A DNA stretch of 20,000 nucleotides from an uncultured virus (IMG/VR IMGVR_UViG_2579779031_000002) (Duplodnaviria > Heunggongvirae > Uroviricota > Caudoviricetes): positions 54,684 to 74,683 of IMG/VR virus record IMGVR_UViG_2579779031_000002; one strand, 5' to 3'. Positions 2,646 to 6,411 of the stretch are shown here, piece by piece (position 1 is the stretch's first letter; every line of letters begins with the position of its first letter). The notes under the pieces are model-generated. The model did not search any database. It saw nothing but the letters and a program-made list of their open reading frames with translations, and was not told where the DNA came from. The position numbers and the translations under genes were made by a program.

Positions 2646-3335
2646 TTAAATGCTTCTCCCAGCTAACCAATCAAAATCTACAGTTTTAGATAACCAATCA
2701 GTTTCATCTGTAAAAACACAAGAAAGCCAGACACAACCATCTTCACATGGTTCTGCCAGCTTAATTTGTTCACTTATGAAAATATTGTCATCTTTGAATA
2801 ACAAGCCATCACCTTTGACACTATCAATAATAAGTTTGGGATAGTTATCAATATCAAATCGCGGATATGTCTTAGCGCTGTAAGATCGAGTTTTAAGTGG
2901 GGGTTGAACAATTAATCGTATTTCACAAAGTTGATCGATAGCTTTTAACTTAAGTGCTCTAAACATAGGTCCATATTGTTTTTGAACCTTGTCTTTATAC
3001 TTTTTAGCACCTACTGAAAGACTATTTCTTTGCTTTCCATTCTGATCAATTGTAGCCCGCCAAATCTCGTTAGCGCTTAATCCATAAGGCAATTTGATTG
3101 TGATGTATTGCTTACCAGAAATGATAACACCGCCTGTGCTTCCCCTATATACACTATTTTCACCTTCATTTTCTTTTTCTACATGGCATGGGAAAAACAC
3201 GTGTTTAGATGAGCTAGATTTTTGCTTTTTAACTTTGTCATTACCTGATGAAACACTGAAATCTTTAAAGAGTTCCTGTCTTTTATTATTTGAGAAAAAC
3301 TCACTCCACTGACGGCGACTTTTATTATTGGGCAT
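2646..3335 (-). CDS. rusA: RusA-family Holliday junction resolvase
   Basis: LPYGLSANEIWR and DIDNYPKLIIDSV...FKDDNI catalytic Asp/Lys motifs. Confidence 0.85.
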   Translation of the reverse strand: MPNNKSRRQWSEFFSNNKRQELFKDFSVSSGNDKVKKQKSSSSKHVFFPCHVEKENEGENSVYRGSTGGVIISGKQYITIKLPYGLSANEIWRATIDQNGKQRNSLSVGAKKYKDKVQKQYGPMFRALKLKAIDQLCEIRLIVQPPLKTRSYSAKTYPRFDIDNYPKLIIDSVKGDGLLFKDDNIFISEQIKLAEPCEDGCVWLSCVFTDETDWLSKTVDFDWLAGRSI

Positions 3336-3410
3336 TATTTCGCCCCAACTGCATCAGCAAATAAAATTTCATAATTAAAGCCCTGCAATCTTAGAAGAAC
3401 TTTAATTATG

Positions 3411-3450
3411 ATTTTAAGATTAAAAACTAATTTTGACTGGTTCCATTAAT
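3411..3450 (-). promoter_or_regulatory. Candidate late promoter, copy 2 (ATTAATGGAAC-N23-TAAAAT) upstream of rusA
   Basis: GGAAC at 3440-3444 and TAAAAT at 3411-3416; matches the motif at 681-720. Confidence 0.55.
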
Positions 3451-4456
3451 TATTTAGTAGAAAAGAAGTAGATGCGCTAAAGAAGTGGATATGACATTGA
3501 TATACAACCTGAGTGTTGTAACCTCTCAAAGCTTCTATATTATTTTTACTAACTAGCAATTCAATTCTAGGTTTATGATCGCTAATTTCATCAATCGTCA
3601 TGTTTCGACTATCAATTGCAGGAGCTAGATCTGGACAGAACAACTTAATATTTTCCAAAGTATTTTCAAATAACATAAAACTTAGAAAAGAATTTTTATT
3701 GAGATTAAAAGCAAAGCAAAAAAATTCTTTCGGCAATGCTGGGCCATAATCTACAAAGCTACGATCAGATAACAAGCAAATTTCCTGATCATAAGAATGT
3801 ACACCAACATAGATTCTCTTTTTATTAATATCTAACCATGCATCAATAATTAATTCACCTAAATATCCTTTTGGCATTTTTACGGAAAAAAAAATAAATA
3901 TTATCTTCAACCATTGAATGTATTTATCTTCAGTTATGTTTAACTGAGATAATACATCTGGGCTAACATGTATATTTTCCTTTTTTATTTTTTGAAATTC
4001 TCTTAATGCATGAGTATCTGTAGGACTAACCGTTGATAATTCACCAAAAGTGTTAAGGCACTTTTCAATACAGAACGGGTTTCTTATAAAATTCATCATC
4101 TTACAAAAAACCAAGTCTTTAATTTCTTCAATTGTTATTGCCTCATTTTTAGCAATTTTATCTAGAATATTATTTGTAAATTCTTCAATTTTATCTTCAT
4201 ATTTTCCAAAAAAAGCTTCAAAATTATTTCTAGTTCTATCGGAAAAAACATCGAAAGTATATAAGTCATTAAAGCTTAAGTTTTTTTCAATTTTAACTCC
4301 TAAAGGGTTTACTAAATTAAAAGTCAATTCTTCCCTATCATCAATTTTAAACTTATAAATCCTTCTTCTCTCCCTTGGCAAAGTTGGATCAATACAATTT
4401 AACTTTTGCTCAACTTGAGAAATAAAATGTTGATTTCTAGTTTCATTATTAAACAT
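3446..4456 (-). CDS. DUF4238-like protein, candidate anti-phage effector (moron)
   Basis: N-terminal RNQHFISQ resembles the DUF4238 QH(Y/F)(V/I)PQ motif; later DLY, FEAFFGKYE, RNP and LLSDR motifs fit; ~330 aa; visibly more AT-rich than the backbone. Confidence 0.65.
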   Translation of the reverse strand: MFNNETRNQHFISQVEQKLNCIDPTLPRERRRIYKFKIDDREELTFNLVNPLGVKIEKNLSFNDLYTFDVFSDRTRNNFEAFFGKYEDKIEEFTNNILDKIAKNEAITIEEIKDLVFCKMMNFIRNPFCIEKCLNTFGELSTVSPTDTHALREFQKIKKENIHVSPDVLSQLNITEDKYIQWLKIIFIFFSVKMPKGYLGELIIDAWLDINKKRIYVGVHSYDQEICLLSDRSFVDYGPALPKEFFCFAFNLNKNSFLSFMLFENTLENIKLFCPDLAPAIDSRNMTIDEISDHKPRIELLVSKNNIEALRGYNTQVVYQCHIHFFSASTSFLLNN

Positions 4457-4501
4457 ATGATTACCCCAAAAATTTTAATTCTAAGTGAACAATGTTAGCA
4501 G

Positions 4502-4535
4502 AAAAAAAGTCCGCACCTTGGGGAAAGTACGGACT
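4502..4535 (-). terminator. Rho-independent terminator
   Basis: Minus strand AGTCCGTACTTT-CCCC-AAGGTGCGGACT (12-bp stem with two G-U pairs) running into a T-tract. Confidence 0.85.
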
Positions 4536-4570
4536 ATAAAACCAATAAAGGCCTTTAACGATAAACAGTT
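4502..4570 (-). ncRNA. Putative ~68-nt small RNA or attenuated leader upstream of the DUF4238-like gene
   Basis: Bounded by a sigma70-like promoter (4576-4604) and the terminator at 4502-4535; no ATG within it. Confidence 0.5.
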
Positions 4571-4575
4571 CACAT

Positions 4576-4604
4576 AATATAAAATATATATCGAATTTAA
4601 TCAA
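4576..4604 (-). promoter_or_regulatory. Sigma70-like promoter TTGATT-N17-TATATT
   Basis: -35 at 4599-4604, -10 at 4576-4581, 17-nt spacer; AT-rich context lowers specificity. Confidence 0.55.
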
Positions 4605-4612
4605 TATACATT

Positions 4613-4828
4613 TTAATGTTTTGTTCTTATTATTTTTGAAACGATTTGTGAGGCTTCATGAAAATCTATATCAAAACAAATCCAAAACCTAAATCGCTTA
4701 TCTCCAAGAATATAACTTTGAATGAAATACTCTGACTTTTTCTCTGGATCAATTTCAGCAGCTTTAAATGAATAAACATCTTTCTCAACTACCTGACCAT
4801 TAAGATCGCCACCAATACATATTTTCAT
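4613..4828 (-). CDS. Hypothetical phage protein (~71 aa, MKICIGGDLNG...)
   Basis: ORF track 4613..4864; the internal ATG at 4828 gives an N-terminal hydrophobic-GG.L.G pattern common in small phage proteins. Confidence 0.65.
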   Translation of the reverse strand: MKICIGGDLNGQVVEKDVYSFKAAEIDPEKKSEYFIQSYILGDKRFRFWICFDIDFHEASQIVSKIIRTKH

Positions 4829-4865
4829 AAAATAAGCCAAGAGAGTTAAATGCCGATGGTTCACT

Positions 4866-5642
4866 TTACCCCTTTTCTATCACTTCTGGGGATTGTTTTA
4901 TTAATTTTGCACCAGCAAAAAGAGATTCCCTTATTTGTCGGTGTGTAAGTATCTCTACATAAGGAATGTAAACTTCATTACTACCTATATCTAGAAATCC
5001 ATTCTTTGTTGTATTTGAAAGTTTCAAATTACCAAAATATATTTCTACCAGATACCCTTCAAATGTCATTGTAGACATAAAGCCATTTAGGAAAGCTTCT
5101 TTATAAGGTGCAATAATTAATTGCTTTAATGAGATTTCATTAAATTTGTTTGTTGAATCTCTAAACAATCTAATTCTAACCTTAATTAGATCTGGAACTA
5201 TTTTTAACTTACCATTAATAATCTCTTTTAGAACATTTTCGAGTACGGGTTCATTTATACAGTCAGCAAAAGCATGATGTTCTGAATGCATTGCTCTCCA
5301 GTAAATTGAAAGAATAAAAACTGCAATTTTTTCTGCATTTATATTTTTATATTTTATTCCCTCTGGACCTTTTATTACTTCAACATCATTTCTTTTTTCC
5401 CTAAGGCATGAAACAGAATAATTTTCATATTTTTCATTAAAAAATCGCTCACATGTACTACATAGCAATCGCGTAAACCAAGTGTCATTTGTAGTGTCAA
5501 CTTGCTCTTTTTGGAGCTGAAATTGATAAGCAACATTCTTTTCAGAATCTCGTAGTATGTGACTAAAAAAAGTTTTCCCTATTACATGTGAGCGCTGTAA
5601 CTCTTTTTTTTCACCACAAAGTTTACAAATTTCTAAAGTCAT
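4866..5642 (-). CDS. Zn-binding HNH-like nuclease-domain protein (moron)
   Basis: CKLC...SHVI...LLCSTCE motif set typical of HNH/zinc-finger endonuclease-like proteins; AT-rich. Confidence 0.6.
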   Translation of the reverse strand: MTLEICKLCGEKKELQRSHVIGKTFFSHILRDSEKNVAYQFQLQKEQVDTTNDTWFTRLLCSTCERFFNEKYENYSVSCLREKRNDVEVIKGPEGIKYKNINAEKIAVFILSIYWRAMHSEHHAFADCINEPVLENVLKEIINGKLKIVPDLIKVRIRLFRDSTNKFNEISLKQLIIAPYKEAFLNGFMSTMTFEGYLVEIYFGNLKLSNTTKNGFLDIGSNEVYIPYVEILTHRQIRESLFAGAKLIKQSPEVIEKG

Positions 5643-5657
5643 TTAATTCACTGTTTT

Positions 5658-5687
5658 AAAAAAAGCCCATCTATTATTGATGAGCTT
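5658..5687 (-). terminator. Rho-independent terminator-like hairpin
   Basis: Minus strand AAGCTCATC-AATAATA-GATGGGCTT followed by TTTTT; 15 nt upstream of the ATG at 5642. Confidence 0.7.
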
Positions 5688-5722
5688 AATCTGTTATTCA
5701 TTTAAAAACTATATGTTACATA

Positions 5723-6007
5723 CTATCTTTGATTATGCCAGATCCTTTCACCAGTAGTTTCAGATTGACCAAATCCACATAATAAACATGCAACATCGTA
5801 CCCATGTATACATAACTCATGAATCAGTTTTACATCTGTTGATGGACAACCAAAATAACCACCTTTATCTAGTCTACCTATTAGAAAATTATTATCTTCA
5901 TCTACCCTATCAATCTGACCTTCACCGAAAATATGAGTTCCATCAGTTTCCATACTATTAGAAGATTTGAAATCAACATAAACTCGATCACCGATTTTAT
6001 ATTTCAT
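5723..6007 (-). CDS. Hypothetical phage protein
   Basis: MKYKIGDRVYV start (KOW/SH3-like) overlapping the upstream stop (ATGA); Cys/His-rich C-terminus. Confidence 0.7.
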   Translation of the reverse strand: MKYKIGDRVYVDFKSSNSMETDGTHIFGEGQIDRVDEDNNFLIGRLDKGGYFGCPSTDVKLIHELCIHGYDVACLLCGFGQSETTGERIWHNQR

Positions 6008-6411
6008 TGGCAAAACTCCACTTTCATTCCGTCAAACTCTTGATCAATTACCGACATTCCACGTGTAATAGCTGCTTGAGAAGGCAATTTTTTAAAATCA
6101 ATTTCATTAACCTCATGACAGCTTTTACACATAAACTTGTTTTTCTTTTCAAGCTTTGACTGAATTACTCTTACCTCAGCTAACATTCTGTTATTACGCT
6201 CTGTAACTTGGTTAAGTTGTCTTAGATATTTAGCTAGCCAATGAACAGGGTTTAATTTTGTTTTGCAGTCAATGCAAAGTACTTCGCTCTTTTCTTCCGA
6301 AATTTGGATATGTTTATGATCACATTTAATTAATTCACGTTTTCGAGTGAACTTAATAACTTGCTGCTCTTCATCAATTTGTATTAACTGTTTTTCTTGA
6401 AAACGATTCAT
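6004..6411 (-). CDS. Hypothetical Zn-binding phage protein with coiled coil
   Basis: CDH...CIDC...LNP and CKSC motifs; ATGA coupling. Confidence 0.75.
   Translation of the reverse strand: MNRFQEKQLIQIDEEQQVIKFTRKRELIKCDHKHIQISEEKSEVLCIDCKTKLNPVHWLAKYLRQLNQVTERNNRMLAEVRVIQSKLEKKNKFMCKSCHEVNEIDFKKLPSQAAITRGMSVIDQEFDGMKVEFCQ

Follow-up and report, generated by a model that had tools for sequence, protein, structure and literature searches.

A candidate Arp-class small RNA and terminator beside a cargo slot with a DUF4238-like gene in a lambdoid Acinetobacter prophage

The locus and its features

The window analyzed here is a stretch of 20,000 nucleotides from an uncultured virus of the Caudoviricetes (IMG/VR record IMGVR_UViG_2579779031_000002, positions 54,684 to 74,683). 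It represents the right end of an IMG/VR provirus record, and its closest named relative is Acinetobacter phage vB_AbaM_ABMM1 (ABMM1 below). The element in question lies on the minus strand: a promoter candidate and a short non-coding leader closed by a terminator hairpin (together 4604-4502) are followed by an open reading frame (ORF) with a remote link to DUF4238 proteins. The parts listed in an earlier sequence-only reading of this locus, namely a promoter TTGATT-N17-TATATT, a ~68-nt non-coding stretch, a palindrome, a terminator, 45 nt and the ORF, are all seen on this strand (Table 1). That reading assembled them into one RNA-gated anti-phage toxin module. The comparisons reported below favor a different organization, to which, taken as a whole, a probability of about 0.7 is given: the leader with its hairpin on one side and the ORF on the other would be two independent elements and not one module. 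Four observations carry this view: the conservation of leader and hairpin in prophages devoid of the ORF, the membership of the hairpin in a genus-wide family, the covariation of its stem, and the presence of alternative cargos at the position of the ORF.

In the proposed scheme, the segment 4604-4502 would be a fixed backbone part of a lambdoid Acinetobacter prophage, and is best read as a phage-borne small RNA (sRNA) candidate of the Arp class combined with a terminator. The terminator would stop the transcription arriving from the upstream early genes, and the leader unit may yield a short RNA of ~69 nt. The stretch directly behind the terminator and up to the rusA gene would be a cargo swap site, occupied here by the AT-rich DUF4238-like gene, whose expression would depend either on read-through of the terminator or on its own, weak promoter. 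The complementarity between the apex of the hairpin and the ribosome-binding site (RBS) of the ORF would be a by-product of a generic C-rich apex and a common GGGG-type Shine-Dalgarno (SD) sequence. The apparent RNA-gated toxin module would then be a chance juxtaposition, and a tempting false lead would be removed.

Table 1. Coordinates of the features around the leader, the ORF and the rusA gene, in window positions and in the 5' to 3' order of the minus strand
Feature	Position	Strand	Remarks
Upstream phage gene, phrog_1523, function not assigned	4613..4864	-	PHROG match, E 1.1e-25; stop codon TAA at 4615-4613
Sigma-70-like promoter candidate, TTGATT-17 nt-TATATT	4604..4576 (-35, 4604-4599; -10, 4581-4576)	-	Starts 9 nt past the upstream stop codon
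Conserved 17-nt 5' segment of the candidate RNA, ATGTGAACTGTTTATCG	4559..4575	-	Predicted single-stranded; unpaired in the consensus fold
Variable 16-nt linker, including the 12-bp palindrome TAAAGGCCTTTA (4557-4546)	4543..4558	-	Allele groups differ, with equal length
Arp-family 3' module, intrinsic terminator	4495..4549	-	U-rich UUUUAUAG, 12-bp stem, CCCC loop, U7 tail
Variable cargo slot	3328..4501	-	Homology with ABMM1 breaks at 4502 and resumes at 3327
Cargo-ORF 5' region	4457..4501	-	-10-like TAGAAT (4483-4478), poor -35; SD-like GGGG (4467-4464)
DUF4238-like ORF, 336 residues, AT-rich cargo gene	3446..4456	-	Candidate single-gene anti-phage defence protein
RusA-like resolvase gene, conserved right border of the slot	2646..3335	-	Proteins 92-94% identical across loci

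Separate inheritance of the leader and the ORF

Homology between the window and ABMM1 spans the upstream gene and the leader, ends exactly at the last base of the T-run, and resumes inside the first codons of rusA. In ABMM1, the slot between these two points is filled by 148 unrelated bases, without a DUF4238-like gene. A scan of IMG/VR retrieved the exact 26-nt hairpin in 25 Acinetobacter provirus contigs, to which ABMM1 is added. Nineteen of these 26 loci do not contain the ORF, the T-run being followed by a short spacer and by rusA, while six contain it and one (L013) harbors a 51%-identical homologue (allele 2) with a different 5' region. Many of the 19 cargo-free loci belong to near-identical prophages, with at least seven distinct sequence variants among them. 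Both diverged alleles of the leader are found with and without cargo. The earlier claim that the RNA gates the ORF is contradicted by this distribution: an identical hairpin and leader in related prophages lacking the ORF is the very finding that the sequence-only reading had named as able to refute it.

The reverse comparison was made on the homologues of the ORF. Among 58 homologue loci outside the phage slot, drawn from genome and viral collections with a few contigs in both, none has a terminator-like hairpin within 200 nt upstream, such a hairpin being defined by a stem of at least 5 pairs with at least 3 G-C, a loop of 3-10 nt and no fewer than 6 T among the 9 bases that follow. A conserved GC-rich hairpin of another kind, GCCGCCAC-NNNG-GTGGCGGC, is observed ~40-50 nt upstream of the DUF4238-like homologues in alphaproteobacterial loci (L035, L036, L040, L041, L042, L044 and L074). 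It has no T-run, and its loop is not complementary to the SD.

The order promoter, non-coding RNA, terminator and downstream protein gene is that of the type III toxin-antitoxin systems ToxIN, AbiQ/antiQ and CptIN. Unlike these systems, the locus possesses neither a tandem array nor a toxin of the ToxN/AbiQ family, and its RNA is also found where the protein gene is missing. Neither direct nor tandem repeats are found in 4400-4660, as the sequence-only reading had already stated for a tandem array, and Pfam reveals no ToxN/AbiQ/CptN-type endoribonuclease domain in the ORF. RNA and putative toxin gene are not inherited jointly, as the two counts given above illustrate. Since repeats and a ToxN-like domain are both missing, this is not a type III toxin-antitoxin locus, and the likeness to one is limited to the layout.

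A genus-wide hairpin family including Arp and sRNA76

The stem of the terminator (4535-4508) is formed by 12 pairs, five of which are G-C, and bears a 4-nt loop; the T7 run that follows ends at 4502. The hairpin alone folds at -15.7 kcal/mol. Only CCCC (4523-4520), within the conserved apex UUUCCCCAAG, is unpaired in the predicted fold. Of the apex described from sequence alone, the CCCC is unpaired, but the AAGG lies inside the stem.

A blastn search with 4615-4495 yields matches in 83 of 247 Acinetobacter species genomes. Nearly all of them cover the last 40-47 nt only, often at several places per genome. These hairpin copies share GUUUUA(U/C)AG, the apex (C/U)UUCCCCAAG and the U-run, while their lower stems differ from copy to copy and are mutually complementary. 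The layout of the family can be written as UUUAUAG, a covarying stem, a UUCCCCAAG apex and a U-run. The pattern TTCCCCAAG-N7-10-TTTTT is found at 5-8 distinct sites in each of five genomes, and its reversed control at none; one of the pattern sites (L147) is not a hairpin. The invariance of the apex is partly by construction, as the search pattern included it.

Covariation was evaluated on 21 distinct sequences: 97.2% of the pair cells are standard, 8 of the 12 pairs are changed on both sides, and none of 500 shuffles is as good. When the 3' partners are slid along the alignment, pairing drops to 17-56%. A covariance model (R1) built from 18 chromosomal members, the phage copies being excluded, hits the window at 4549-4495 on the minus strand over the full model length (68.3 bits, E 2.8e-13), the next hit in the window reaching 17 bits. 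No Rfam 15 family is found in positions 3000-6200 of the window or in 23 loci of the hairpin family, with the exception of two tRNAs and sub-threshold chance hits.

The apex is found in three entries of Table S3 of Kroger et al. 2018 (PMC6182133), sRNA40, sRNA76 and sRNA4. Within this table, sRNA40 (96 nt, or 72 nt from a second transcription start site, TSS) corresponds to locus type L145, and sRNA76 (147 nt) to locus type L159. According to the available text of a preprint (PMC12338739), sRNA40 is Arp, whose seed lies at the terminator's apex and pairs with the GGGG of the pilA SD. The same text reports that changing CCCC to GGGG in Arp raises the dissociation constant (KD) for pilA RNA from 29 to 140 nM, and that changing GGGG to CCCC in pilA restores binding (7.9 nM). 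The pairing of a CCCC apex with a GGGG SD, put forward as a mechanism by the sequence-only reading, is therefore documented, for a paralogous hairpin and in that part of the preprint. In Arp, it is the family's conserved parts that form the pairs with the SD and start codon of pilA. The pilA leaders from four genomes read CAAUCUUUGGGGAAAAGGCUAUG, and the Arp-pilA duplex was computed at -50.8 to -51.3 kcal/mol (-54.4 with a longer pilA fragment), agreeing with the value of -50.18 in the preprint text.

The phage unit has in common with Arp and sRNA76 the UUUAUAG, the covarying stem, the UU(U)CCCCAAG apex and the U-run, and the length of Arp, 72 nt, compares with ~69 nt predicted for the phage RNA. 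It differs from them by its 5' two-thirds, which are unrelated, by its lower stem, and by its place in a prophage, right behind a phage gene. Several chromosomal loci per genome and a prophage unit share the 3' module of the pilin-repressing sRNA Arp. No mention of such sharing was found in the available portions of the Arp and Kroger texts. The apex sequence is not present in the supplements of the Arp preprint and of Hamrock 2024, and a full-text search combining it with 'Acinetobacter' returned one unrelated paper only.

The third entry, sRNA4, maps to a chromosomal locus that is orthologous in five genomes (L134-L138), where Table S3 of Kroger et al. 2018 annotates it opposite to the family hairpin. 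With this orientation, sRNA4 would begin with the complementary loop CCUUGGGGAAAG, which contains an SD-like GGGG. Three explanations can be considered for this orientation: a problem of strand, a terminator working in both directions, or an RNA with the capacity to pair with the CCCC-apex RNAs. Another complement appears in Table S2 of the same study, in which the 51-nt sequence of an internal TSS at pilT (ACX60_13895) contains CTTGGGGAAATTATG, a 10-nt perfect complement of the family apex at an RBS-like position; one such hit is about what chance would provide in that table.

The leader: promoter candidate and predicted short RNA

The block extending from the -10 hexamer through the T-run is more tightly conserved than the neighboring coding sequence, of which identity is ~80%. 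Its 5' segment ATGTGAACTGTTTATCG is identical in nearly all 26 loci. Of the 26 loci aligned or displayed, 25 have the phrog_1523 gene linked to leader and hairpin. In L106, the block recurs behind a different upstream gene and keeps a variant of ATGTGAACTGTTTATCG. The linker is variable and is deleted in L104. The palindrome singled out by the sequence-only reading, TAAAGGCCTTTA, is specific to the window and not conserved: related loci carry TAAATGCCTTTA, TAATACCTTTA or none. The predicted transcript of ~69 nt would comprise, from its 5' end, the conserved single-stranded segment, the variable linker, a U-rich stretch and the family terminator, an architecture that corresponds to that of Arp.

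The promoter candidate displays 9 of 12 consensus matches in a consensus scan. Its hexamers keep their positions, 17 nt apart, in the two diverged alleles of the leader as well as in L104. The -35 hexamer varies as TTGATA, TTGATT, TTGAAT or TTGAAG and the -10 hexamer as TAAATT, TATATT or TATTTT, TTGA and T-A...T persisting throughout, a pattern that suggests a promoter function.

Several results weigh against a dedicated transcription unit. Promoter-like sites are rarer than expected in this AT-rich window (28 versus 69.5 +/- 7.4 in shuffles), and since they are not enriched, the promoter match alone carries little weight. The leader of L106 is devoid of a good -35. The consensus fold of the leader reveals no conserved structure upstream of the terminator. 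Finally, three raw-read RNA runs gave 0 reads on the stretch, the organism and the presence of the prophage in these runs not being established. The search for RNA runs yielded none with more than 9% of the sampled words, and the contigs of one further run contain two pieces, of which one carries the hairpin in a different setting and the other is a relative of the upstream gene. On balance, it is an even bet that the leader yields a discrete RNA. The function as a terminator of upstream transcription holds with or without such an RNA.

The simplest competing explanation is that of a plain terminator ending the upstream early unit, without any separate small RNA, the apex and its flank reflecting a favored terminator design or shared ancestry. 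The hairpin is located 78 nt past the stop codon of a co-directional gene to which it is linked in nearly all loci, and could be nothing more than the terminator of that gene; one family member (L123) follows two tRNA genes, and the weak promoter match points the same way, the RNA runs without reads being in keeping with it. Conversely, a plain terminator does not account well for a block, from -10 to terminator, that is more conserved than the neighboring coding sequence and travels with a different upstream gene in L106, or for the key promoter positions and 17-nt spacing retained in diverged alleles. For many members of the family (loci L104-L163), no ORF of the same strand ends in the 400 nt upstream, and at least two members, in the Kroger tables, are sRNAs annotated by differential RNA sequencing (dRNA-seq), 72-147 nt long. 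This explanation is therefore held to be unlikely, albeit with roughly a one-in-four share of credence, and the reading as an Arp-class sRNA candidate combined with a terminator is retained.

A pairing between GUGAACUGUU, in the 5' segment, and AACAUUGUUCAC, just past the terminator, was considered and rejected: its energy of -8.8 kcal/mol corresponds to a P of 0.13 in shuffles, 17% of windows do as well, and it is absent from allele 2 and from the empty loci. Host targets of the 5' segment were searched for in five genomes, where its complement (up to 3 mismatches) is no commoner than a reversed control. Positions 4580-4615 contain an inverted repeat of 15 nt with 87% complementarity around a 6-nt spacer (TAAAATGTATATTGA / TCGATATATATTTTA, minus strand). 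It extends over the upstream gene's stop codon and over the promoter candidate from -35 to -10, and may be an operator.

A cargo slot between the terminator and rusA

The slot is filled differently among related prophages. Its contents are the 148-nt spacer, the DUF4238-like ORF, allele 2 (in L013), a 101-residue ORF (in L104) and a reverse-strand bSEFIR gene of 437-496 residues (in L106, L170 and L183). Loci of the L104, L106, L170 and L183 type, which carry variants of the leader and hairpin, came from a scan with a second pattern and from species genomes. The L106 protein matches bSEFIR in PADLOC (PDLC03957, E 1.3e-81) and TIR_2 in Pfam (2.5e-17), as well as SEFIR. With these alternative fillings, the stretch between the terminator and rusA holds at least five contents, one of which is a recognized anti-phage system. 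The bSEFIR gene (L106:1593-3083, minus strand) converges on the phage hairpin, its 3' end lying 5 nt from the T-run. The 101-residue cargo ORF (L104:1621-1926, plus strand) has no Pfam or PADLOC match and is perhaps a defence or counter-defence gene. It starts only 23 nt past the T-run, which argues that the genes of the slot are at least partly transcribed through the terminator.

This proximity would also fit a checkpoint on late genes. By analogy with the PR'-6S-tR' unit of phage lambda, the leader would combine a promoter active constitutively with a short RNA and a strong terminator, a phage antiterminator would override them, and the cargo would sit at a lambdoid moron site. The downstream rusA, a helix-turn-helix (HTH) regulator and the tail and late genes, as seen in ABMM1, are co-directional and must be transcribed past the terminator. 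However, searches of the two upstream proteins and of the rest of the window reveal no Q-, N- or other antiterminator family. A Q-like antiterminator encoded upstream was examined as a candidate and discarded, neither family nor atlas searches supporting it for the 258-residue or the 83-residue protein. Furthermore, rusA lies downstream of the terminator, unlike in the lambda gene order, and the same hairpin family closes chromosomal sRNAs unrelated to phage late genes. The checkpoint is thus improbable, at slightly under one chance in ten.

Within the proposed cargo swap site, the organization is reminiscent of the P2/P4 hotspots, as far as these are described in the available text of Rousset et al. 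2022: alternative cargos occupy a fixed site between conserved phage genes, and the cargos are comparable, with a known defence gene (bSEFIR) and a DUF4238-like gene. It differs from these hotspots in its lineage, a lambdoid Acinetobacter prophage, and in its site, from terminator to rusA, while the defence function of the cargo is putative here. The stretch from terminator to rusA may be regarded as a defined cargo and putative defence hotspot in a common A. baumannii prophage family, and as a place to seek more defence genes.

In an Atlantibacter prophage (L043; 7108-7491 and 6124-6492), the DUF4238-like homologue likewise has a RusA gene and a DinI-like gene in its vicinity. The nin/rusA neighborhood may accordingly be a recurrent site for DUF4238-like cargo in unrelated lambdoid phages.

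The DUF4238-like ORF

The region of the ORF has a GC content of 26-30%, compared to 35-40% in its flanks. The link to DUF4238 is remote. The HMM search called for by the sequence-only reading does find Pfam DUF4238 (PF14022), below the gathering cut-off (22.4 bits versus 27, E 9.3e-5). DUF4238 is attached to all 30 of the nearest atlas clusters listed (score 0.96), and UniRef gives this name to some homologues of the ORF. The family comprises proteins of ~331 residues, with 120 hits and 430 representative clusters at E<=0.001. Its invariant residues include N8, Q9, H10, E16, Q17 and D231. The AlphaFold2 model of the ORF is of high predicted quality (predicted local distance difference test, pLDDT, 90.4; predicted template modeling score, pTM, 0.88), and one match in BFVD is an uncharacterized protein of Stenotrophomonas phage Smp131 (E 3.5e-5).

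Other searches gave weak results or none. Across the homologue family, DUF4238 is sub-threshold in 6 of 38 proteins (E<=0.01, none better than 9.3e-5) and absent in 32. An hhalign comparison with 3 canonical Acinetobacter DUF4238 proteins is not significant (probability 0.2, E 0.3), with an alignment of low diversity. Comparison of the model with the PDB produces no convincing match, with a best E of 0.19 in Foldseek and a best Z of 4.5 in a wide VIA-align search, where only generic helical structures are returned. The ORF has no match in PADLOC or PHROG. Likewise, a search of the PDB by sequence profile gives nothing at E<=1, NCBIfam contains no match, and tblastn against phage records finds none.

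The neighbors of distant homologues comprise prophage genes, integrases, ArdC, CBASS-like E1/E2/JAB, SRA-HNH, RES and HicB, and no conserved partner gene is found among them. A single DUF4238 protein from a P2 hotspot, cloned alone, gives strong resistance to T7, according to the text available from Rousset et al. 2022 (PMC9122126). This activity, together with the location of homologues on mobile elements and in defence islands, makes a defence role the best guess for the ORF. By analogy, it is probably a single-protein anti-phage defence gene.

The ORF can be set beside Rst_DUF4238, the DefenseFinder name for the single-gene system reported by Rousset et al. Both are single proteins of ~330 residues without a partner gene, phage-borne, with a DUF4238 match that for the ORF is sub-threshold, and both display the N-terminal motif N-x-H-[FY]-[IV] and the motif S-D-[RH]. 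Unlike Rst_DUF4238, the ORF falls below the Pfam cut-off, is devoid of a PADLOC match and belongs to a separate clade of ~430 representative clusters.

As regards its expression, the 5' region of the ORF may contain a weak promoter, the -10-like hexamer being TATAAT or TAAATT in other allele-1 loci. A scan of the window finds no terminator after the ORF. A constitutive promoter of the ORF would therefore read into rusA, which tells against this route.

Apex-SD pairing: strength, specificity and possible targets

The pairing of six Watson-Crick and two G-U pairs described by the sequence-only reading is present: CCCCAAGG (4523-4516) is complementary to TTTTGGGG (4471-4464) over 8 contiguous pairs, at -10.7 kcal/mol. 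This is no more than mildly unusual: when the 45-nt spacer is shuffled 5000 times, 1.2% of the shuffles contain a run of at least 8 pairs, as do 10/444 and 12/444 arbitrary windows of 45 nt on the two strands. Of 644 windows, 5.9% attain a duplex energy at least as good, and the complementarity is one of 12 inverted repeats in 261 nt. Specificity for the ORF is not apparent either. Among the 35 gene starts of the window, seven have a GGGG near the SD, and the RBS of the ORF ties for 12th-13th place in apex duplex energy, behind, among others, a phage ORF at 6779 (-18.7), the methylase and rusA. When hybridization and accessibility are combined, the Arp-pilA pair reaches -18.5 kcal/mol, compared to -6.3 for the phage RNA with the pilA SD, -6.4 with the methylase start and -3.4 with the SD of the ORF.

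Conservation of the pairing is mixed. UUUUGGGG is kept in all 7 allele-1 loci, while allele 2, in the same slot, retains only a GGGG complementary to the apex, that is 4 pairs. A GGGG SD is found in both cargo alleles of the slot and not in three other Acinetobacter homologues, a point that leaves some room for regulation by the apex. The apex being invariant across the genus, no co-variation with the SD of the ORF is possible.

It is very improbable that this SD is sequestered, by a short RNA in trans or by a pseudoknot formed in cis on read-through transcripts, so as to keep a toxic defence protein off until infection: the layout, the 8 pairs, their retention in allele 1, the GGGG of both alleles and the mechanism established experimentally for Arp and pilA (in the preprint text) are real, but the RNA and hairpin occur mostly without the ORF, its homologues elsewhere occur without the hairpin, the invariant apex, the 4 pairs of allele 2, the rank of the ORF and its net energy do not single it out, ToxI-like repeats and a ToxN domain are missing, and the DUF4238 protein of Rousset et al. 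2022 is described as working as a single cloned gene. From the sequence-only reading, the short transcription unit survives as a plausible and conserved block, and its use as a dedicated gate or antitoxin for the ORF is unsupported.

Within the reading of the leader as an Arp-class candidate, an action on other transcripts can be envisaged, in which the CCCC apex of this prophage paralogue would damp GGGG-type RBSs in trans, with pilA as a candidate target. The phage apex pairs with the pilA SD UUUGGGGAAAA over 9 pairs. The raw duplex energies of phage RNA and pilA are -31.8 to -35.4 kcal/mol for group B and -25.3 to -29.2 for group A, compared to -23.1 to -40.8 for 13 other members and -50.8 for Arp. 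The phage RNA therefore stays at the baseline of the family for this pairing. Past the apex, it lacks the extended complementarity that Arp has to the SD and first codons of pilA, and a role on pilA is considered doubtful. If it were true, repression of pilA would lower type IV pili, with less pilus-dependent phage superinfection and DNA uptake as a result, and the module, with its 5-8 sites in each Acinetobacter genome, would be the signature of a whole family of anti-SD small RNAs, Arp being the sole member studied. If expressed, the phage unit would be a prophage-encoded regulator able to reach host RBSs, including that of the type IV pilin.

Prophage context

The minus strand of the window, from ~13525 downwards, is organized as a lambdoid early-right operon. 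It encodes a Cro-like HTH protein, an O-like replication initiator, a DnaC/IstB-like ATPase, a C5 methylase, small nin-like ORFs and RusA. On the other strand, and divergent from this operon, lies an S24 CI-like repressor. ABMM1 exhibits the same gene order, which continues co-directionally into the tail and late genes. A second terminator-like hairpin of 9 pairs with a T-run is located at 5663-5687 on the minus strand, just upstream of the phrog_7075 gene. It scores 10.5 bits with model R1 and lies outside the CCCC-apex family. By its position, the two genes preceding the cargo slot are bracketed by terminators.

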